This document shows, piece by piece, positions 18,174-64,000 of a stretch of DNA of 64,000 bases; the stretch's first letter is position 1; each line of letters begins with the position of its first letter. The notes beneath the pieces are model-generated. The model saw nothing but the letters and a program-made list of their open reading frames with translations, searched no databases and was not told the origin of the DNA. The position numbers and the translations under genes were made by a program. Where the stretch lies: positions 22,332 through 86,331 of the forward strand of contig JBEKYY010000013.1 in NCBI GenBank assembly GCA_049510395.1, read 5' to 3'. The stretch is from Verrucomicrobiota bacterium (GTDB lineage Bacteria; Verrucomicrobiota; Verrucomicrobiia; Limisphaerales; UBA11358).

Positions 18174-20777
18174 ATGTCGTCACATCACCCAGTTGTCGTC
18201 ACCGGCCTCGGCGTCATCACCGCCGCGGGGTGCGGTGTGTCTGCAGTGTGGGACGCCCTGCGCGCGGGCCGCAGCGGTTTGGGGCCGCTGACGCTCTTCG
18301 CCTCCCCGCGTCATGGCCGGCATCTGGTCGGCCAGGTGTGCGTGGACGTGGACGCCCTAGCCGGCAACGTGCGCGGCTCGCGCTCGGACAAGCTCGCGTG
18401 GATTGCGACACAAGAAGCGGTGAAGCAGGCGGGACTGGAACCCGGTCTCCGCTCCTTGGCGTCCGAACGCGTCGGCGTGGCCTTCGGCTCCACCGTCGCG
18501 GGCATGTTGGGCACGGAGGAAGTCCTTCGCCGTTTGTTGCGTGAAGACCGGCAGCGCTTCGGCCCGTTCCGCTTTCACGAATGCGCGTCGGCCACCGAAT
18601 TGTGCGCGCGGCAGCTCGGCGTGCGCGGGCCGTGCCTCACTTTTTCCACGGCGTGTTCGGCGGGCGCGATGGCCATCGCGGCGGCGGCGGAAATGATTGA
18701 GAGCGGCGAGGCCGACGTAATGGTTGCGGGCGGCGCGGATTCGTTGTCGCGGCTGACGCTGAATGGTTTTGGCTCGCTGCTGTTGCTGGACCCCAACGGC
18801 TGCCGGCCTTTCGATGCCGCCCGCACCGGCATCAGTCTCGGTGAAGGCGCCGGGGTGCTCGTGCTGGAAGCGGAAGCCACGGCACGGGCGCGCGGCGCGA
18901 AAATTCTGGCCCGGCTGTCGGGCTGGGGCGCGAGTTGCGACGCCAGCCACACCACCGCGCCGCATCCCGAAGGCGATGGCGCGCTCGCGGCGATGCGTCT
19001 GGCGCTGGAACGAAGCGGCCTGCCGCCCGGCGGCATCAATTATGTGAGCGCGCACGGCACCGGCACGCCCGACAATGACGCGATGGAGGCAAAAGCGTTG
19101 CGCCGCTTGTTTGGCGAATCCGTGCCGCCGTTTTCGTCGGTGAAGCGGTTCTTCGGCCACACGCTGGCCGCGAGCGGCGCGATCAAGGCGGTGGTCTGCA
19201 TCCGGGCACTCCAGGAGCAGGCCGTTCCCGCCAGTCTCGGCTGCGACACAACCGACCCGAAGATCGGACTGGAACCGGTGCGCCAGTTTCGCGAACTGCC
19301 GCTCGAACACATCCTGAGCAATTCATTCGGCTTCGGCGGAAACAACGCGGCGCTCGTGTTTTCACGGGCGGAAAGGCTGAAAAGCGGGAATGGTGGAGTG
19401 CTGGAATATTGGAGCCAGGCCGATCCGCCACCTGTCCCATCACTCCATCACTCCATCACTCCATCGGATTCTCCCCTTCGCCTCGCCGTGGTGAGCACGG
19501 GCGTGGTGAGCGCCGCCGGCAATTCGCTGGAAGAAGTCGGGCGGACCTTCCGGGCTGGTGGCGCGGTGCCGGTCGTGACTGAGTTGCGTGCGCCGCTGCG
19601 GGGTGGCCTGGTTCCCGCGTATGCCTGTGGCGAGTTCGGCGCAACGGAGATGATTCTCCCGGCCCGGCGGCGGAAGCTGGGCCGGCTCCAGCAGATGGCG
19701 CTCGTGGCCGCGCGCCGCAGTCTGGCGGCAGGCGGGCTGTCCGCGTTGCCGCCGGAACGCACGTGCATCACGGTCGGCACCGGCCTGGGGTGTTTGAATG
19801 AGACGGCGCTGTTCGTGGAGAACATGCTGGTCAACGAGGAGCGCGCCCCGCTGCCGACGCGTTTCACCAATTCAGTTCACAACGCCTGCGCCTCGAATTT
19901 GGCCATCGAACTAGGATTGAAAGGGCTGAACTCCACGCCCACGCACCAGGAGATTTCGTTTGAAACGGCGTTGTGGCAGAGCGCGTGGGAAATCAGCCGT
20001 GGCCGCGCCGACTTCGCGCTCGCCGGTGGCGCGGATGAATTGAATTCGTATGTGCTCGCGGCCGGTGCGCGCTGGGGTTGGTGGGATGCCGCCACGCCTG
20101 CGTTGCGACCGTTTGCCGAAGGCTTGCACAAAAAACAACGGCCCTTGCCCGGTGAAGGCGCGGCGGTGTTTTTGCTGGCCGACGCGAATAAAGCGCCGAA
20201 CCCGCTGGCGCAAGTGGCGGCGATCCGGCTGGGGCGATTCGCGGGGTTGCCGGGCGGCGGCATTGATGCGAAGGCGGAAGCGGCGTGGATTTGCGAAACG
20301 CTGGAACGCAACGGGCTTTCGCTTGCGGAGATGGACGCGGTGTTATGCGGTGCGAACGGCTGGCAACCGCTGGACCAGATGTATCGCACAGTTGCGAACC
20401 GCCTCGCGCAACTGGCGGGCCGGACAATTCCGTGTGGCGCTTACAAACATTGCTGCGGCGAGTATTACAGCGCGTCGGCTTTTGGATTGTTGACGGCAGT
20501 CGGCATGGTGCGCGGGGAAATTTCATTTGCGCACTGCTATCCAACTGTATCGGACCCGCGCACTGCTCCTGTTTTTCTCCCTCTCCTCCCCAAAGGAGGA
20601 GAGGGCCGGGGTGAGGAGCCCGTTATTTCCCAGATCAAATCCCCTCTCCCCAGCCCTCTCCCCGCTCAGGCGGGGCGAGGGAGTCGGGATAGTGTCAAGA
20701 TGCGCTCGCCGCGCAATGTGTTGCTTTACACCCTCAGTCCCGGCGGTTGCCGGGCAATGTGCTGCGTATGCGCCTGA
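18174..20777 (+). CDS. Fused KS + KS-like (CLF) didomain protein
   Basis: Domain 1 STACSAG, AHGTGT, GHTLAASG, NSFGFGG; domain 2 PTRFTNSVHN, GEGAA without catalytic Cys. Confidence 0.85.
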   Translation: MSSHHPVVVTGLGVITAAGCGVSAVWDALRAGRSGLGPLTLFASPRHGRHLVGQVCVDVDALAGNVRGSRSDKLAWIATQEAVKQAGLEPGLRSLASERVGVAFGSTVAGMLGTEEVLRRLLREDRQRFGPFRFHECASATELCARQLGVRGPCLTFSTACSAGAMAIAAAAEMIESGEADVMVAGGADSLSRLTLNGFGSLLLLDPNGCRPFDAARTGISLGEGAGVLVLEAEATARARGAKILARLSGWGASCDASHTTAPHPEGDGALAAMRLALERSGLPPGGINYVSAHGTGTPDNDAMEAKALRRLFGESVPPFSSVKRFFGHTLAASGAIKAVVCIRALQEQAVPASLGCDTTDPKIGLEPVRQFRELPLEHILSNSFGFGGNNAALVFSRAERLKSGNGGVLEYWSQADPPPVPSLHHSITPSDSPLRLAVVSTGVVSAAGNSLEEVGRTFRAGGAVPVVTELRAPLRGGLVPAYACGEFGATEMILPARRRKLGRLQQMALVAARRSLAAGGLSALPPERTCITVGTGLGCLNETALFVENMLVNEERAPLPTRFTNSVHNACASNLAIELGLKGLNSTPTHQEISFETALWQSAWEISRGRADFALAGGADELNSYVLAAGARWGWWDAATPALRPFAEGLHKKQRPLPGEGAAVFLLADANKAPNPLAQVAAIRLGRFAGLPGGGIDAKAEAAWICETLERNGLSLAEMDAVLCGANGWQPLDQMYRTVANRLAQLAGRTIPCGAYKHCCGEYYSASAFGLLTAVGMVRGEISFAHCYPTVSDPRTAPVFLPLLPKGGEGRGEEPVISQIKSPLPSPLPAQAGRGSRDSVKMRSPRNVLLYTLSPGGCRAMCCVCA
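19390..19465. repeat. tggagt/actcca REP-like element forming the interdomain linker
   Basis: atggtggagtgctggaatattggag ... (ccatcact)x3; in frame. Confidence 0.7.
20577..20684. repeat. CCCTCTCC-family palindromic doublet, in frame in the KS-CLF C-terminus
   Basis: ccctctcctccccaaaggaggagaggg ... cccctctccccagccctctccccgctcaggcggggcgaggg. Confidence 0.85.
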
Positions 20778-23862: not shown

Positions 23863-24867
23863 ATGTCGAACGTGATTTCCATGCTACTAGAGGTCATGCG
23901 GAAATCCTGCGGATGTTTTGTCTTCTTGCAAAGCGCCAGAGGACTGGCGCACTCCAAGACGCTTCGCGTATTTCAGGAATCATCATGCCGCGCGCAGCGT
24001 CTTGGAGTGCGGCGGCCCTCCGCCGCTTTTTCCAGCGGCATATTCAACGGCTCCGATGTTAATTGGAACTACAGCAGCTGGAAAAGAATATCGCGCCTCC
24101 TCTCCCCGGCCCTCTCCTCCTTTGGGGGAGGAGAGGGAGTTGGCCCGCTACAATCGTTGTTCAGTTGCATCCGGGCGAAAGCCGGTCTGCTCGCATTTGC
24201 CTGCCTGTTGTCGGGTTGCATTTCGCCGCGTCCTTATCCGGTGGCGCCACTGGCGGGAATACCGGCGCAGGAGGCTGAACGGATGGCGCGTCAAAACCTC
24301 GCCAGCCTGTTCCCGCTGCAATATCGCTCGGTGCAACGCGCCCTCATCACCGTGGCAGGCAAACAGTTCACCTGTGACGGCGTGCTCGAGGTGTCAACAA
24401 ACGATGGCTGGTACCTCGCCATCGTGAGTAATCTGGGGCTGGTGGCCGGGCTGCGCGTGAACCGGGACGGTTCGTGCGAGGTGCTCCAGGTGACGCCCTT
24501 GTTCCGCGAATTCTGGACCCGGCAATTCGTGGCGCGGGACGTGCGCCGGCTGTTCATTCCGCCACCAGAGTTCGTTTCCGCCGGGCGTTTGGCTGACGGA
24601 CGGCTGGCTTGCGAAACCGTGCCGGAATCCGACGGCGCGGTGGTGCGTTACGTCTTCAGCGCCGACGGCCAACAGTGGCAGGAACTGGAAGTTTCGCGCG
24701 GTGGCTGCCGGGAGTATCACGCCTTGCTGCGCGGTTATCGCGCCTTTGCCGGGCACGCGCGCGAAGTGCCTGCGGAAATTGAAGTGCACGCGGAGAGCTA
24801 CCAGCTTCACTTACGGCTGGTGGAACTTAACCTGAAGAATGAAATCGCACCGGAGGCCGCGCAATGA
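23863..24867 (+). CDS. Lipoprotein, DUF3261-like; true start probably downstream (near 24157)
   Basis: Lipobox LSGC near 24220; the upstream part of the ORF is made of two repeat elements. Confidence 0.55.
   Translation: MSNVISMLLEVMRKSCGCFVFLQSARGLAHSKTLRVFQESSCRAQRLGVRRPSAAFSSGIFNGSDVNWNYSSWKRISRLLSPALSSFGGGEGVGPLQSLFSCIRAKAGLLAFACLLSGCISPRPYPVAPLAGIPAQEAERMARQNLASLFPLQYRSVQRALITVAGKQFTCDGVLEVSTNDGWYLAIVSNLGLVAGLRVNRDGSCEVLQVTPLFREFWTRQFVARDVRRLFIPPPEFVSAGRLADGRLACETVPESDGAVVRYVFSADGQQWQELEVSRGGCREYHALLRGYRAFAGHAREVPAEIEVHAESYQLHLRLVELNLKNEIAPEAAQ
23894..24060. repeat. Palindromic MITE/REP doublet, family A
   Basis: Highly similar to 14882-15048. Confidence 0.85.
24096..24140. repeat. CCCTCTCC-family hairpin
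   Basis: ctcctctccccggccctctcctcctttgggggaggagagggag. Confidence 0.8.
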
Positions 24868-37453: not shown

Positions 37454-37599
37454 CGCAACTCACTTCCTTTCTGGGGGCGAGAAAATCCGCTCGCGGGCGG
37501 GGCTCGCAAATGGGCGCGTAGAATAGTTTTTCCGTCGCCGTTGTCAATGCGCAAAAGCAGACGCAAAAGCGGGTGCGCACCTTGACATGGCATCGGTTT

Positions 37600-37636
37600 T
37601 CTCCCTCTCCGCCAACGGAGTTGGGGGAGAGGGAGT
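37600..37636. repeat. CCCTCTCC-family hairpin
   Basis: ctccctctccgccaacggagttgggggagagggag; near-identical to 38795-38830. Confidence 0.8.
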
Positions 37637-37706
37637 TGGTGGCAGCATCACGATGCGTCCAAAAGCGGACGGTTGCTTTTACCCGCGGCAAAGTTATTCT
37701 GCCCCC

Positions 37707-38744
37707 ATGATTAAAGGAAAAAGGCCGGCCAAACCCGCCGATTTGGAGTTACAACGCCGCATCCAGGAACTCATCGCTTTCAAAGGCGGTGGCCACAATG
37801 AAAACGAAGTTGCCGACATCGTCGAAAACGCGCTCAAGCTGCTGGCTGACGTGAAGGAAACCGGCGACGTGCGGGTGATCCAGACCGCTCTGCGCGAATT
37901 GCGTTATGCCTTCCGCCTCTTCGCGCCGTATGCGCACGTTCGCAAGGTCACCATTTTCGGCTCGGCCCGGACGCAATCGGGCAAGGTGGAATATCAACAG
38001 GCCGTGGATTTCGGGCGCAAGATTGTGAAAGCCGGCTTCATGGTCATCACCGGCGCCGGACCGGGCATCATGCAGGCCGGGCACGAAGGCGCCGGGACCG
38101 CAAACAGTTTCGGGGTGAACATCCGTTTGCCGTGGGAACAAAGCGCGAATCCGGTCATTCGCGAGGACAAAAAACTGGTGACGTTCAAATACTTTTTCAC
38201 GCGCAAATTGATTTTCATCCGGCATTCGGACGCCATCGTGCTTTTCCCCGGCGGCTTCGGCACGCTCGACGAGGGATACGAGGCGCTCACGCTCATGCAA
38301 ACCGGCAAGAGCCAGCTCATGCCGCTTGTGCTCGTGGATTCCCCCGGCGGCACGTATTGGAAGACATGGGACAAAAACGTCCGCGAACACCTGCTCCGCA
38401 ACCAGTTGATTTCGCCCGACGATTTGAATCTTTACCGGATCACCGACGACACCAACGAAGCGGTGAAAATCATCACGCGCTTTTACCGGAATTTCCAATC
38501 CACCCGCTTCGTGAAGGATTTATTCATCATCCGGCTCAAAAACGCGCCGTCGGATTCCGCCCTGGCCGCGATGAACGAAGACTTCGCCGACATCATCAAT
38601 GGAGAGCCCATCAAATGCATCAAACCGACGCCGGAAGAAGTTGAAGGCCGGGACAGCCTGGACCTGGCGCGCATCGCGTTCGGCTTCAACCGCCGCGATT
38701 ACGGCCGCCTGCGGCAATTGATTGACGTGCTGAACGGGTTGTGA
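37707..38744 (+). CDS. LOG family nucleotide phosphoribohydrolase-like protein
   Basis: VTIFGSAR, TGAGPGIM, YFFTRK, PGGFGTLDE. Confidence 0.9.
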   Translation: MIKGKRPAKPADLELQRRIQELIAFKGGGHNENEVADIVENALKLLADVKETGDVRVIQTALRELRYAFRLFAPYAHVRKVTIFGSARTQSGKVEYQQAVDFGRKIVKAGFMVITGAGPGIMQAGHEGAGTANSFGVNIRLPWEQSANPVIREDKKLVTFKYFFTRKLIFIRHSDAIVLFPGGFGTLDEGYEALTLMQTGKSQLMPLVLVDSPGGTYWKTWDKNVREHLLRNQLISPDDLNLYRITDDTNEAVKIITRFYRNFQSTRFVKDLFIIRLKNAPSDSALAAMNEDFADIINGEPIKCIKPTPEEVEGRDSLDLARIAFGFNRRDYGRLRQLIDVLNGL

Positions 38745-38794
38745 GGGTAGGGACGCGCAGTCGACACTTTCCGCGCTTGACGGCCGCATTTCTT

Positions 38795-38830
38795 CCCCCT
38801 CTCCGCCAACGAAGTTGGGGGAGAGGTGGC
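38795..38830. repeat. CCCTCTCC-family left arm abutting the DUF559 stop codon
   Basis: ccccctctccgccaacgaagttgggggagaggtggc. Confidence 0.8.
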
Positions 38831-38835
38831 ATGTT

Positions 38836-39270
38836 TCAAAGCGGTGCTCGTGGAGGCTGAATCAATACATCAGCCTTCGGCGGAAGAAAGCGATGGTTTT
38901 GAACCTTCCGCACCACAGCCACACAACCCGTTCGCCGATGCAAAGCGTTCCAGATTTCCAACAGGATGCCTTCGCGGTTTTTTCGCCATTGATGATTCCA
39001 AAAGCGCAATTCTTCGATGCCCTCTGACGCCAGAAATTTATCACGTTCCTCGTCACGCTGGCGTTGCTCAGGCAGCCCATGCTGGAACCCGTCCAGCTCG
39101 ATGGATAACTTTGCGGTGGGACAATAAAAATCGAGAAAGTATTTCCCCAGCGGATGCTGGCGGCGAAATTTGAATCCCGCAAAACGCCCCGCTCGTAAAG
39201 CGCGCCACAAATCCTTTTCTTCGTCGGTTTGTTCACGACGGAGACGGCGGGCATTACCGATGGGATTCAT
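38836..39270 (-). CDS. DUF559 (Vsr-like) endonuclease domain protein
   Basis: ARRLRREQTDEE, KFRRQHPLGKYFLDFYC, IELDGFQH, RDEERD, LRFWN. Confidence 0.9.
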   Translation of the reverse strand: MNPIGNARRLRREQTDEEKDLWRALRAGRFAGFKFRRQHPLGKYFLDFYCPTAKLSIELDGFQHGLPEQRQRDEERDKFLASEGIEELRFWNHQWRKNREGILLEIWNALHRRTGCVAVVRKVQNHRFLPPKADVLIQPPRAPL

Positions 39271-39304
39271 GGACGCAGCGTAAATCATAATTTTTGAAAG
39301 ACAA

Positions 39305-39495
39305 CTCCTCTCCCTTGCCCTCTCCCCGCGCTGCGCGCGGAGAGAGGGAATGGAACCGGCTTCAACGGTTTGCACGTTGGCTAAAACTATTCTCCCTCTC
39401 CGCCGTCACCGACGGGGGAGAGGGACGGGGAGAGGTGGCGCTTTAGCTCAAATCCCCTCTCCCTGTCCCTCTCCCCGCTTTGCGGGGCGAGGGGA
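39305..39495. repeat. CCCTCTCC-family right arm plus one complete doublet
   Basis: Hairpins at 39305-39349, 39391-39438 and 39454-39495. Confidence 0.85.
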
Positions 39496-39584
39496 TAAGA
39501 ACGAGAAACGTTTGTTCCCTGGTTGCTTGATTGTTCATCCTCACCGCACTCGACAGTTTGCGTTCCGGTTGCTAGCGTTCGGCC

Positions 39585-40535
39585 ATGAATTTTCTGGTCA
39601 CCGGCGGGGCCGGCTTCATCGGTTCGCACGTTTGCGAACGTCTCCTGCACGACGGCCACGCAGTCTGGACGTTCGACGACCTCAATCCGTTTTACGACCC
39701 GCAACTCAAACGCCGGAACCTTCGCGACATCCAGTCACTCGCCAAACCATTTGAATTTGTCCACGGCGATCTGACCAACCGTGCCGCGCTCGACAATCTG
39801 TTTGACAGTGTGAAGTTCGACCAGGTCATCCACCTGGCCGCCCGCGCCGGTGTGCGGCCCAGCCTTGAAGAACCGGCGCTCTACCAGCGCGTTAACGTCG
39901 AAGGCACGGTCAATATTCTGGAAGCTGCGCGGAATCATCGCGTCAAAAAAGTCATCATCGCCTCGTCATCATCGGTCTATGGCGTGAACTCCAAGGTGCC
40001 GTTCAGTGAGAGCGACCCGATTTTTTCCGCCATTTCGCCTTACGCCGCCAGCAAGCTCGCCTGCGAAGCGCTCGGCCACGTTTATCATCACGTTTACGGC
40101 ATGGACGTGGCCGTGCTTCGCTTGTTCACGGTTTATGGTCCGCGCCAGCGGCCCGACCTGGCCATCCGCAAGTTTGCGACGCTCATTCACGCCGGCAAAC
40201 CGATTCCGGTCTTTGGCGATGGCAGCATGGCGCGCGATTACACCTACATCACCGATGCGCTCGACGGCATCATCGCCTGCACGCAAAAGGAATTCGGCTT
40301 TGAAATATTCAACCTCGGCGAGTCACAAACCGTGAAACTGAGCCGCGTCATCGAATTGCTCGAAGCCGCGCTCGGCAGGAAAACCGTCATTGACCGCCAG
40401 CCGCTGCAGCCCGGCGACGTGCCGGTCACGTTTGCCGACATTACGAAAGCGCGCGCCAGGCTGGGCTATAATCCGCAGGTCAGAATCGAGCCGGGCATCA
40501 AATTATTTATAGATTGGTTTCGGAAAACTGTTTAG
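39585..40535 (+). CDS. NAD-dependent nucleotide-sugar epimerase (UDP-glucuronate 4-epimerase-like)
   Basis: TGGAGFIG, HLAARAGVR, ASSSSVYG, YAASK, TVYGPRQRPDLA. Confidence 0.9.
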   Translation: MNFLVTGGAGFIGSHVCERLLHDGHAVWTFDDLNPFYDPQLKRRNLRDIQSLAKPFEFVHGDLTNRAALDNLFDSVKFDQVIHLAARAGVRPSLEEPALYQRVNVEGTVNILEAARNHRVKKVIIASSSSVYGVNSKVPFSESDPIFSAISPYAASKLACEALGHVYHHVYGMDVAVLRLFTVYGPRQRPDLAIRKFATLIHAGKPIPVFGDGSMARDYTYITDALDGIIACTQKEFGFEIFNLGESQTVKLSRVIELLEAALGRKTVIDRQPLQPGDVPVTFADITKARARLGYNPQVRIEPGIKLFIDWFRKTV

Positions 40536-61863: not shown

Positions 61864-64000
61864 ATGGCCGCTGACACCCCGAATCTCCCGCCTGCTGACC
61901 GTGGCCGGCTGCCGGTGCTTTGGGCGCTCGCCGGGTTGGGAATGGCCTCGGTGATGACGCAGTTGGCGCTGATGCGCGAGTTGCTCTGCGCCTTTGCGGG
62001 TAATGAAATGGTGCTGGGCATCGCGCTCGGCCTCTGGCTGCTGCTCACGGGCCTGGGAACTTCGCTGGGCCGGACGGCTGACAAACTCCGCAATCCCCTG
62101 GCCGTCCTGTTCACCGCGCAAATCTTCATCGCCGTAATTCCATTGGCGCAGGTGTTTGCCGTCCGTGCCCTGCGCAACGTGGTCTTTGTGCGGGGCGCGG
62201 AGGTGGGCGTGACGGGAACCGTCCTGAGCGCCGCGGTTTTGTTGCTGCCGTTTTGCATCGTCGCCGGGTACACCCTGACGCTGGCGTGCTCGATTCTCAA
62301 CCGGCGCGGCGACGCGTCGGGCGCGGGCCGCGTCTATGTCGCCGACAGCCTGGGCAGCGTGGTCGGCGGCGCGCTGTTCAGCTTCGTGTTGGTGCGGTTT
62401 CTCGACCACATCGCACTGCTCGCCGTGCCGGCCCTGTTGAACCTCACAGCCGCGGCATGGCTTGGTAAAGCAATATCGCACCCCCTCGCCCCGTCCCTCT
62501 CCCCCGCCGCCGGCGGGGGAGAGGGTGGTCCGCACGAAGCGGGACCGGGTGAGGGGGAACCTGGAAAAGCACCAGTGGTTCCACTTGCAAATCCGCTGCA
62601 CTGGGAGATTTTCATTTTGATACTGGCCGCGGGCATTGCCGCTTTCGTCTGGCTCGTCCACTCCGACGCGCTCTCGACCTCGCTCCAATTCCCCGGCCAG
62701 AACGTCTTGTTCCGCGCCAACTCGCCTTACGGCCGGCTGGTGGTCACGGAATCGGGGGGCGAGACCAATTTCATCGAGAACGGCATCGCTATTGTGTCCA
62801 CACCGAACGTCGAGCAGGTGGAGGAAGCCGCGCACTATGCCATGGCCCAGCGGCCCGATGCGCGGCGGGTGCTGCTGGTTTCAGGCGGCGTTGCCGGAGT
62901 GGCGAAGGAAATCCTCAAATACAACGTCGCCGGGGTGGACTGCGTGGAACTCGACCCGCTCGTCATCGAAACCGGCCGCCGCTTCCTGCCGGAGCACTTC
63001 GCCGATCCGCGCATCTGGGTGATTGCCACCGACGCGCGGCAATTCGTGCGGCAGACGACCAACCGCTACGACGTCGTCATCCTCGCGCTGCCCGACCCGT
63101 CCACGGCACAGCTCAACCGCTTCTTCACGGTCGAGTTTTTCAGCGGGGTCAAACGGGTGCTGGCCGATGGCGGCGTGCTCTCGTTCGCACTGGGCCGTTA
63201 CGAAAACTATGTAAGCCCAGAACTGGCGCAACTGCTGGCTTCGGCGCACTGGTCGTTGAAACAGTCGTTCGCCAACATTCTGGTGTTGCCCGGAGGCCGG
63301 GTTTTCTTCCTCGCGTCCGACGGCCCACTGCACGGCGACATCGCCGCACAAGTCGAAGTGCATGGCATTCTGACGAAGCTCGTGAACCGGCATTATCTCG
63401 ACGCCATGTTCACCGCCGACCGGATGGCAGACATCCAGCGTGCGGTGTCGCAACCCGCCGCGATGAACCGGGATTTCAGTCCGATGCTTTACTTTTACCA
63501 CCTGCGCCATTGGATGAGTCAGTTCACCTTGAGCTTCGGCGCGCTGCAAGCGGTGCTGTTGCTGTTGCTGCTCGTGTATCTCATTCGATTGCCTGTCCTC
63601 TCCATCCTCCGTAGCAGAGCTACTGCGGAGGACGGGCGTAGCACTGCGAAGGATGGACGCGGACCGGCGCTCGTGCTCTTTGCGTCGGGCTTCGCGGGGT
63701 CGGCGCTGGAGGTCGTGCTGCTGCTGGCCTTTCAGGTTTTGTGCGGCTCGGTCTATCATCAGGTTGGCGTGATCGTGACGGTTTTCATGGTTGGGCTGGC
63801 GGTTGGGGCGGCGTGGGCGAATCGAGCGCCTACAAACCTTGAAGAAGGTAGGGCGGGCTGTCCTCAGCACGCCGCTACGGCGCGCTCGGAGAGCGCGCCC
63901 TACCAAAGACAGGCAAGATGCCTGCGCTACCTTGCTTTTGCCATTGCCGCACTTGCGTTGCTGCTGCCGGCACTCCTGTTTTCACTCAATCGTCTGAGCA
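61864..64000 (+). CDS. Membrane-fused spermidine synthase-like protein (3' truncated)
   Basis: Frame open to the window end (not in the ORF track); QLALMRE..GNE TM region, VLLVSGG..VDCVELDP, DARQF, YDVVIL. Confidence 0.85.
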   Translation, partial: MAADTPNLPPADRGRLPVLWALAGLGMASVMTQLALMRELLCAFAGNEMVLGIALGLWLLLTGLGTSLGRTADKLRNPLAVLFTAQIFIAVIPLAQVFAVRALRNVVFVRGAEVGVTGTVLSAAVLLLPFCIVAGYTLTLACSILNRRGDASGAGRVYVADSLGSVVGGALFSFVLVRFLDHIALLAVPALLNLTAAAWLGKAISHPLAPSLSPAAGGGEGGPHEAGPGEGEPGKAPVVPLANPLHWEIFILILAAGIAAFVWLVHSDALSTSLQFPGQNVLFRANSPYGRLVVTESGGETNFIENGIAIVSTPNVEQVEEAAHYAMAQRPDARRVLLVSGGVAGVAKEILKYNVAGVDCVELDPLVIETGRRFLPEHFADPRIWVIATDARQFVRQTTNRYDVVILALPDPSTAQLNRFFTVEFFSGVKRVLADGGVLSFALGRYENYVSPELAQLLASAHWSLKQSFANILVLPGGRVFFLASDGPLHGDIAAQVEVHGILTKLVNRHYLDAMFTADRMADIQRAVSQPAAMNRDFSPMLYFYHLRHWMSQFTLSFGALQAVLLLLLLVYLIRLPVLSILRSRATAEDGRSTAKDGRGPALVLFASGFAGSALEVVLLLAFQVLCGSVYHQVGVIVTVFMVGLAVGAAWANRAPTNLEEGRAGCPQHAATARSESAPYQRQARCLRYLAFAIAALALLLPALLFSLNRLS
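62481..62557. repeat. CCCTCTCC-family element, in frame
   Basis: ccctctcccccgccgccggcgggggagaggg; encodes PLAPSLSPAAGGGEGGPHEAGPGEG. Confidence 0.85.
63592..63656. repeat. cctccgtagc...ctgcggagg element, in frame
   Basis: Nested hairpin; related core at 49570-49592. Confidence 0.75.
63847..63930. repeat. GGTAGGG...CCCTACC element plus caggcaagatgcctgcgctac half element, in frame
   Basis: Same ends as the 49550-49640 and 50080-50136 families. Confidence 0.8.

Follow-up and report, generated by a model that had tools for sequence, protein, structure and literature searches.

The stretch of DNA described here, called the window, comprises 64,000 nucleotides (nt) of contig JBEKYY010000013.1 of a Verrucomicrobiota bacterium (assembly GCA_049510395.1). 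In this window, a LOG/lysine-decarboxylase-like gene (37587-38744, plus strand) and a gene for an NAD-dependent epimerase (39585-40535, plus strand) bound a spacer of 843 nt. It contains, in this order, a palindromic arm, an open reading frame (ORF) of the DUF559 nuclease family on the minus strand, an inverted arm and, about 40 nt further on, an empty doublet of two arms. The arms are built from a CCCTCTCC/GGAGAGGG hairpin and a GGTGAGGG-like tail. The segment 38795-39349 is a filled copy of a doublet of the BoxC/PIT/TM type that encloses a YcjD-family gene, and arms of this kind accompany most of the DUF559 genes that we collected from relatives.

Five nt separate the stop codon of the gene (38836-38838) from the left arm. 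Translation likely starts at 39288, or at an alternative ATG at 39270; a GTG-extended frame reaching 39375 crosses the arm and is unlikely to be the real one. The left arm folds at -13.7 kcal/mol (z -4.2, equalled by none of 200 shuffles) and matches the left arm of the adjoining doublet directly at 76%; it is about 12 nt short compared with the complete arms of orthologues. The right arm (z -4.3) matches the right arm of that doublet at 81%. The doublet itself has a z-score of -6.6, with its inverted match 95% complementary; as a single strand it forms three stems and its two tails pair together. In the filled copy, the gene occupies the loop of the middle stem. Folded as single-stranded DNA, the arms have z-scores from -4.2 to -6.6, and for each of them 0/200 shuffles are as good. 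The doublet architecture, the ORF enclosed by it, its 5-nt distance from the arm and the further arms of the window had been listed in a preliminary description of this DNA, and all of them are found where it had placed them (Table 1).

Table 1. The arm-gene-arm unit and related repeats of the window.
Feature	Position	Strand	Remarks
Stop-codon-side arm	38795..38830	+	CCCTCTCC...GGAGAGG hairpin, shortened tail
DUF559 (YcjD-family, Vsr-like PD-(D/E)XK) nuclease gene, predicted	38836..39288	-	single copy in genome; Pfam PF04480
Start-codon-side arm	39306..39349	+	anti-tail (CCTCTCCC), then CCCTCTCC...GGAGAGAGGG hairpin; inverted relative to the left arm
Complete empty doublet	39391..39495	+	left hairpin and tail, spacer of about 14 nt ending CAAAT, anti-tail and right hairpin
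Second empty doublet	20577..20684	+	like build; spacer ends CAAAT; fold z -3.7
Single arm	24097..24141 (about)	+	anti-tail plus hairpin
Single hairpin without tail	37600..37636	+	subtype shared with the stop-codon-side arm
Nested variant	62481..62560	+	tail/anti-tail outer stem encloses CCCTCTCC hairpin and a second small hairpin; z -5.6

The flanking of DUF559 genes by arms is a general property of the clade. Relatives yielded 29 homologous loci; 20 of them have a correctly oriented arm within 200 nt on the upstream side of the gene, 23 on the downstream side and 17 on both, and no arm was found at any of them beyond 350 nt. Eighty further loci were taken from named Verrucomicrobial metagenome-assembled genomes (MAGs), and the 71 whose sequence extends at least 300 nt to each side were counted: there is an arm upstream in 51, downstream in 52, on both sides in 40 and on either side in 63. 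If any orientation is accepted, 66/71 loci carry an arm within 300 nt; several of the misses at flanks bear degenerate arms rejected by the search pattern. Within 300 nt, the arms number 172 in 46.5 kb, or 3.70 per kb; beyond 500 nt, they number 11 in 146.5 kb, or 0.075 per kb. In the control, epimerase loci of the same genus, an arm within 300 nt occurs in 2/30, and both of these adjoin a DUF559 element. The proposal of the preliminary description that DUF559 genes are flanked more often than random genes is thus borne out, and the arms have a preferred orientation, a point that it wished to see checked: the nearest upstream arm is of the expected hairpin-then-tail type 47 times versus 11 of the opposite type, the nearest downstream arm of the mirror type 51 times versus 6. 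In the Verrucomicrobial clade, both arms turn their tail side towards the gene. We regard the association between DUF559 genes and arms as established.

The assembly (3.46 Mb in 72 contigs, 56.8% G+C), which its named relatives put with Limisphaerales-type MAGs of the Verrucomicrobiota, is rich in these repeats. With a strict pattern, the whole genome holds 95 arms, 50 of the hairpin-then-tail form and 45 of its mirror form, including 18 tight doublets with spacers of 17-30 nt, whose left and right hairpins differ in subtype; a pattern count gave 73 versus 2 for the reversed pattern. In the window, the 8-mer CCCTCTCC occurs 17 times, a number reached by 0/100 shuffles (mean 1.25, maximum 6). 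Judged by their letters and build, the arms are the known BoxC family, alias PIT elements or TM/TMECO intrastrand-triplex motifs, and constitute no new family. The published Escherichia coli consensus, CCCTCNCCC N3-6 GGGNGAGGG N3 GGGNGAGGG, has a single strict match in the whole genome, owing to the longer hairpin and 5-nt linker of the local arms. They share its build of a pyrimidine stem, a purine stem and a second purine block: a relaxed BoxC-type pattern gives 92 matches versus 2 in the reversed genome. The linker measures 5 nt in 88/92 of them.

In an intrastrand triplex, the third block would run antiparallel to the purine stem and join it in G·G:C, A·A:T or T·A:T triads. This rule was scored at one free position of the tail, the other six of seven being fixed by the search pattern; the free base follows the rule in 52/92 arms and breaks it in 40 (39 C, 1 G). 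In 12 arms, the first block is perfectly paired with the tail and not with its stem partner, and because of these the sequences point to alternative pairings with a single central mismatch, for which a triplex is not necessary. An Rfam scan returned only hairpin-like microRNA matches, far below the gathering scores. No promoter-like site was found by a promoter scan at the element; one terminator-like site, at 39567-39584, lies outside it, and this is no more than shuffles give. For BoxC/PIT/TM motifs, the literature likewise reports no promoter or terminator role (PMC4666352).

The preliminary description had also spoken of hairpins landing inside genes. In the window, the hairpin at 37600 falls within a 5' extension of the longest LOG-like ORF and may lie upstream of the true start rather than inside the gene. 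Outside the window, clear in-frame arms do exist. In the genome of the window, numbered G000 (other G and L numbers designate related genomes and loci), arms stand in frame inside the ORFs of an HrpB-like helicase (898 aa) and a TsaD-like protein (369 aa), at G000:C7:23500-29000, where they are translated into inserts rich in Pro, Leu, Ser, Gly, Glu and Arg. Arms can therefore occupy coding sequence and leave the frame intact. One more doublet of this genome, at G000:C1:30944-32377, holds 1356 nt in its spacer rather than about 25; the insert encodes a 399-aa IS481/IS3-like transposase with rve, rve_3 and HTH domains, which suggests that an insertion sequence landed in the doublet.

The gene product belongs, on the strength of its sequence and predicted structure, to the DUF559/YcjD family, with a Vsr-like PD-(D/E)XK fold and a predicted nuclease activity. 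Pfam PF04480 matches it with an E-value of 2.5e-36 (124.3 bits, against a cut-off of 20.6) over profile positions 6-108 of 109, and the protein has the expected residue at each of the 23 columns that are invariant in an alignment of 20 sequences. The catalytic-type residues D53, E64 and D66 are invariant, and H70 is found in at least 90% of the 20 sequences; all four are placed on the central strands 50-56 and 61-66 of the predicted model. This model has a mean pLDDT (predicted local distance difference test) of 76.5, above 88 in the core over most of the length, with the 28 C-terminal residues disordered. Its closest solved structure is 3HRL from Neisseria gonorrhoeae (sequence E-value 1.1e-22; fold template-modelling score, TM-score, 0.86; root-mean-square deviation 2.2). 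Foldseek also retrieves the catalytic domain of the homing endonuclease I-Bth0305I (PDB 3R3P; E 1.1e-3, TM-score 0.76) and, more remotely, E. coli Vsr (1VSR; E 0.13, TM-score 0.39). Ranks 2-11 of the fold search are mostly proteins of Toxoplasma and Tetrahymena mitochondrial ribosomes with a DUF559-like domain; their rank is a hint that the DUF559 fold may also hold structured RNA. No transposase family was found in the arm-gene-arm unit by a profile search of the window's proteins.

Other members of the family have been met in several contexts. In Caulobacter, the DUF559 protein VsrA is reported to provoke the SOS response in vivo when the cognate methylation is missing (PMC12907096), and a cyanobacterial DUF559 gene has been assigned to the EDxHD family (PMC9403480). 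In a survey of predicted inverted-repeat-based inversions, the annotation 'DUF559 domain-containing protein' is enriched in the genes that they hit, with an odds ratio of 14.3 given in a table without comment (PMC9881135).

The co-occurrence of gene and repeat extends to whole genomes. In a sample of one genome from each of 16 other families of the order, a stand-alone DUF559 gene is present in 6/6 families with 25-165 arms versus 0/10 families with 0-4 arms, a split with a Fisher probability of 1/8008 among kin that are not independent. Within the genus, the gene was found in 11 of the 24 relatives searched and is full-length in nine. These nine genomes hold 1-83 arms, and two of them, with one arm each, have arms of a variant form that escapes the pattern; thirteen genomes of the genus in which the gene was not found hold 0-49. 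The link thus looks looser within the genus than among sister families. Phylum-wide, three of 150 genomes of at least 90% completeness have at least 40 arms, and the gene was found in just one of these, G199.

The arm-gene-arm unit is probably mobile and comes and goes as a block. This reading follows from an orthologous site, from paralogues, from insertions inside genes and from arm-poor genomes. The spacer between the LOG-like and epimerase genes could be delimited in 13 loci. The unit is present in three of them (G000, G016 and G047), and in three others (G050, G001 and G046) the spacer is short and arm-free, at 48, 153 and 192 nt, so that filled and empty orthologous sites, which had been named as a check on the initial idea, do exist. 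The remaining seven spacers hold other, unrelated small cassettes, and that of G013 keeps a lone arm-like remnant. In a fourth filled site, in G054, the gene stands upstream of the epimerase gene with 89.7% identity over 126 residues, its last 24 residues being in another frame. Paralogues within one genome repeat the picture: the pairs of G028 and G005 are 79% identical over 500 nt and 76% over 530 nt, respectively, and their homology covers the gene with roughly 70-110 nt per side and ends at the arms. In ten such pairs, the homology extends to the whole unit in two, to part of it in one and to the arms only in three; four give no match.

Two units of a distinct DUF559 clade lie inside other genes. 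In G082 (L166, C100), the unit is inserted in frame in the R subunit of a type I restriction enzyme (hsdR) and splits its SWI2/SNF2 domain; in G199 (L167, C167), it lies within the frame of an HsdM methylase, for which the match to N6_Mtase ends at profile position 236 of 311. At both ends of these insertions, the translated arms form linkers rich in Pro, Ser, Gly and Arg. The only arm found in the 5.3 Mb of G082 is 41 nt upstream of its DUF559 gene, and one of the two arms of G091 is 38 nt upstream of the gene there; the gene therefore brings arms along in the absence of a resident repeat population.

The spacer between the LOG-like and epimerase genes is an insertion hot spot in its own right (L040, L045, L047 and L058; orthologues of 38745-39584). 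Several members of the genus have a two-gene cassette in it, the first product of which begins MPTIFEKDG; in G013 and G002 the cassette comes with a duplicated promoter region and first codons of the epimerase gene. Other small genes occupy the spacer in G011 (L038).

The public sequencing runs that contain this stretch of the window are peat and wetland metagenomes. In four peat runs, the summed contig depth over 38756-38869 and 39383-39496 exceeds that of the genes on either side several-fold, and contigs terminate at the arms, as expected if arms are very abundant in the community. The single candidate for excision of the unit in contigs from public reads, joining 38826 to 39445 with 32 other letters between and 29 letters on one side, turned out to be another copy of a doublet.

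The companionship of DUF559 and BoxC-type modules extends beyond Verrucomicrobiota. We inspected 19 loci, namely 18 tblastn hits from a plasmid collection, picked for taxonomic spread before their flanks were viewed, and ycjD of E. coli K-12; modules were scored partly by eye and without a formal control. At least one module, consisting of a C-rich stem, its G-rich partner and a near-copy of the G-rich block, occurs within about 300 nt in 18/19 loci, on both sides in 10 and probably in an eleventh. The modules of Sinorhizobium have practically the same letters as those of the window genome. Lineage-specific variants are found in Deinococcus (four species), cyanobacteria, sphingomonads, Azospirillum, Neisseria, Photobacterium and Methylobacterium; the locus on a Thermoactinomyces plasmid has no module. 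How the module is oriented towards the gene depends on the lineage, and its tail points outward in Deinococcus, as it does in the hsdR and hsdM insertions.

Two of these loci deserve a closer description. In the N. gonorrhoeae record (L148), the DUF559 gene homologous to 3HRL is located between two direct copies of a repeat of about 60 nt, which contains a CTCTCTCCC hairpin and a tail. In E. coli K-12 (L146, NC_000913.3:1348500-1352500), a degenerate arm-like hairpin overlaps the 3' end of ycjD and a full TM motif follows at a distance of about 210 nt in the direction of fabI; towards sapF, the spacer of 67 nt has no module. According to PMC12817139, ycjD fills the sapF-fabI spacer, exactly at the site that the eef operon takes in other phylogroups.

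We propose that arms, the gene-less doublets included, are created, moved or erased through recognition by the nuclease; we give this reading a probability of roughly 0.45. The protein would recognise an arm by the conserved base of its stem and its tail, probably in a folded or mismatched state (hairpin, cruciform, triplex or alternative pairing), and would nick or cut it at that point. Repair of the break by copying or recombination would then move, copy or delete arms; it would also account for the genome instability reported for TM motifs. The empty doublets of about 100 nt and the single arms would then be gene-less relatives of the unit, comparable to REPINs, the doublets formed by repetitive extragenic palindromic (REP) sequences, or to miniature inverted-repeat transposable elements (MITEs). 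On this reading, the protein would be an active enzyme with the arms as its substrate, and would act on the empty copies in trans. A wider proposal, tentative in our eyes, is that YcjD/DUF559 proteins are dedicated structure-recognising enzymes of BoxC/PIT/TM repeats across bacteria, the PD-(D/E)XK counterpart of the HUH-type REP-associated tyrosine transposases (RAYTs): they would generate, move and erase arms, ride between phyla and enter genes in frame.

Several observations weigh against an action of the nuclease on the arms. One copy of the gene stands against about 95 arms of several hairpin subtypes in the genome, and the arms that flank it are of a minor subtype. The IS481-like transposase in another doublet means that doublets also receive unrelated mobile DNA. 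By eye, neither a target-site duplication nor a conserved insertion site could be found at the borders of doublets or on comparing filled and empty sites. To our knowledge, no nuclease of the PD-(D/E)XK Vsr-like fold acts as a sole transposase. Arm-rich genomes in which no stand-alone DUF559 gene was found, namely G015 (49 arms), G012 and G019 (22 each), G023 (17), G154 (44) and G178 (42), count against a strict dependence of the arms on the gene. Its absence from them is not established, because they are 92-97% complete and genes flanked by repeats often sit at contig ends; G154 and G178 have just a partial DUF559 domain within long frames. DUF559 genes are also found in genomes with 0-2 arms of the pattern. 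In E. coli, the TM loci of 56 strains are reported as mostly stable in position (Holder et al. 2015, PMC4666352).

The alternative that survives best, although we hold it to be unlikely, is a selfish gene of the homing type: a free-standing DUF559 gene would live in repeats, cut empty doublets or other targets, such as restriction-modification (RM) genes, and be copied by repair through arm homology, while the arms are spread by something else. The closest characterised fold is indeed that of a homing endonuclease, I-Bth0305I, and the EDxHD placement of the cyanobacterial gene (PMC9403480) agrees with it, as do the units in frame inside the conserved hsdR and hsdM and a cyanobacterial copy beside or within a DUF1156 gene. 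Arms can abound where no stand-alone DUF559 was found, and a doublet is occupied by the IS481-like element as well. Such homing is harder to reconcile with a single filled copy among the about 19 doublets of the window genome, and with the genes of G082 and G091, which have arms despite almost no other arms to serve as targets. The arms adjacent to the gene, moreover, vary in sequence with the DUF559 lineage and the host, and no intron or intein is seen at the window gene.

Less probable still is a host caretaker or regulator. Here a domesticated nuclease would clear hairpins, cruciforms, triplexes or mismatches of arms, or bind or cut arm RNA; nearby arms would serve autoregulation, and nothing would spread. 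A copy number of one, or a low one, and vertical inheritance at one site in several members of the genus would be natural for such a gene. Caulobacter VsrA has been proposed as a repair enzyme (PMC12907096), instability and an in vitro block of polymerases have been reported for TM motifs (PMC4666352), and the neighbours of the predicted fold in apicomplexan mitoribosomes may point to binding of structured RNA. A fixed housekeeping gene, however, is a poor match for a gene whose locus varies among genomes, that has diverged paralogues and insertions in RM genes, and that was found in only 11/24 relatives of the same genus, nine times in full length.

It is improbable that the arms merely trap passengers, i.e. 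that they are fragile or recombinogenic landing sites in which DUF559 is frequent without any functional tie. TM loci in E. coli are described as hot spots of rearrangement (PMC4666352), the IS481-like element did enter a doublet, and 7/13 spacers between the LOG-like and epimerase genes hold other small cassettes; yet these cassettes have no flanking arms, and a scan of the window genome for wide arm pairs gave one other cargo only. DUF559 between arms, by contrast, recurs with a fixed polarity, at 66/71 plus 18/19 loci across phyla, and has arms even in arm-poor genomes. A programmed switch, in which the inverted arms flip the gene on or off, would suit the enrichment of DUF559 among predicted inversion targets (PMC9881135) but is hardly credible, since the arm subtypes differ and are fixed to the stop or start side in G000, G016, G047, L067, L069, L072 and L075, no invertase gene adjoins, and contigs from four public runs contain no inverted form.

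DUF559/YcjD is a very widespread orphan nuclease family and the BoxC/PIT/TM motif has been known in E. coli since the 1990s; the link described here gives each of them a testable partner. The family appears as a recurrent companion of the motif across phyla, and this companionship is apparently undescribed in the literature that we found. It can be put to the test in E. coli K-12, which has ycjD and, as reported in PMC4666352, TM copies. If the nuclease does recognise and process the arms, a second class of enzyme is added to the biology of REP-type repeats. Both the conservation of a 40-nt non-coding motif, near-identical from Enterobacteria to Verrucomicrobia, and the genome instability near it would be explained, and a route would be given by which a nuclease domain with flexible linkers enters other proteins.

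Of the known systems, I-Bth0305I (3R3P) and E. coli Vsr (1VSR/1CW0) share their fold class with the model of the window protein; its gene lies outside any intron or intein, and no cognate cytosine methyltransferase adjoins it. Caulobacter VsrA is of the same Pfam family but is described as linked to the motif of a solitary methyltransferase, not to repeats (PMC12907096). A pair of MITE and autonomous element resembles our case in the terminal inverted arms common to short, gene-less and longer, gene-bearing copies, and in the paralogues of whole units. It differs in that the unit has no known transposase, that no target-site duplication was seen in it and that the orientation of the arms to the gene varies, with the tail inward here and outward in Deinococcus and the hsdR and hsdM insertions.

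The likeness to REP/REPIN-RAYT systems is closer: short palindromic repeats, frequent inverted doublets, copy numbers from tens to hundreds, a protein gene in one or few copies between inverted copies of the repeat, and co-occurrence of repeat and gene across genomes. The protein, however, has a PD-(D/E)XK Vsr-like fold and not that of an HUH Y1 enzyme, and the GTAG/CGTC tag is absent. A RAYT as the partner of the arms was considered and rejected, because Y1 genes neither flank arms nor track their number: the four strong PF01797 (Y1_Tnp) genes among seven matches in the genome have no arm core motif within 1.5 kb, and Y1_Tnp was found in 37/41 related genomes whatever their arm count, including 8/10 arm-poor families. 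The preliminary description had suggested a REPIN-like system served by a nuclease of non-HUH type; its association of gene and repeat stands, with the HUH/RAYT alternative failing, while the repeat turns out to be already known as BoxC/PIT/TM. Elsewhere in the genome, a protein of 323 aa that matches Y1_Tnp weakly (E 5.5e-9; L005, G000:C7:61495-64824, ORF 1414-2385) is flanked by a 26-nt inverted repeat, 96% complementary, with copies 1006 nt apart and unrelated to the CCCTCTCC arms; it may be a different pair of repeat and transposase.

The closest relative of the arms remains the BoxC/PIT/TM motif, described in E. coli, where K-12 holds 23 TM copies, and in more than 260 genomes (PMC4666352, in which the work of Hoyne and Maher 2000, 2002 on TM motifs is cited). 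It was described again as a switch between G-quadruplex, hairpin and duplex, under the names HPG1 and HPG2 (Kaplan et al. 2016, PMC5100583). These papers report neither remnants of transposases or integrases nor a common function of the flanking genes (PMC4666352, PMC5100583), and a mobility gene was 'never found' (PMC4666352). The main text of PMC4666352 contains none of the words endonuclease, nuclease and ycjD, and that of PMC5100583 neither endonuclease nor ycjD, supplementary tables being outside this count; titles and opening parts of abstracts in the literature searched, supplements being outside its scope, do not link DUF559 to BoxC-type repeats either. Unlike E. coli BoxC, the arms have a local hairpin 11-15 nt longer in stem and loop, and a linker of 5 nt instead of 3. 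In both, a pyrimidine stem is followed by a loop, the purine stem, a short linker and a near-copy of the purine stem, with conserved letters shared; the oligonucleotide of Kaplan et al. (PMC5100583) has the same TTTTCTCCCTCTCC lead-in and the same stems as the arms, and both repeats are intergenic and form inverted pairs of two arm types.

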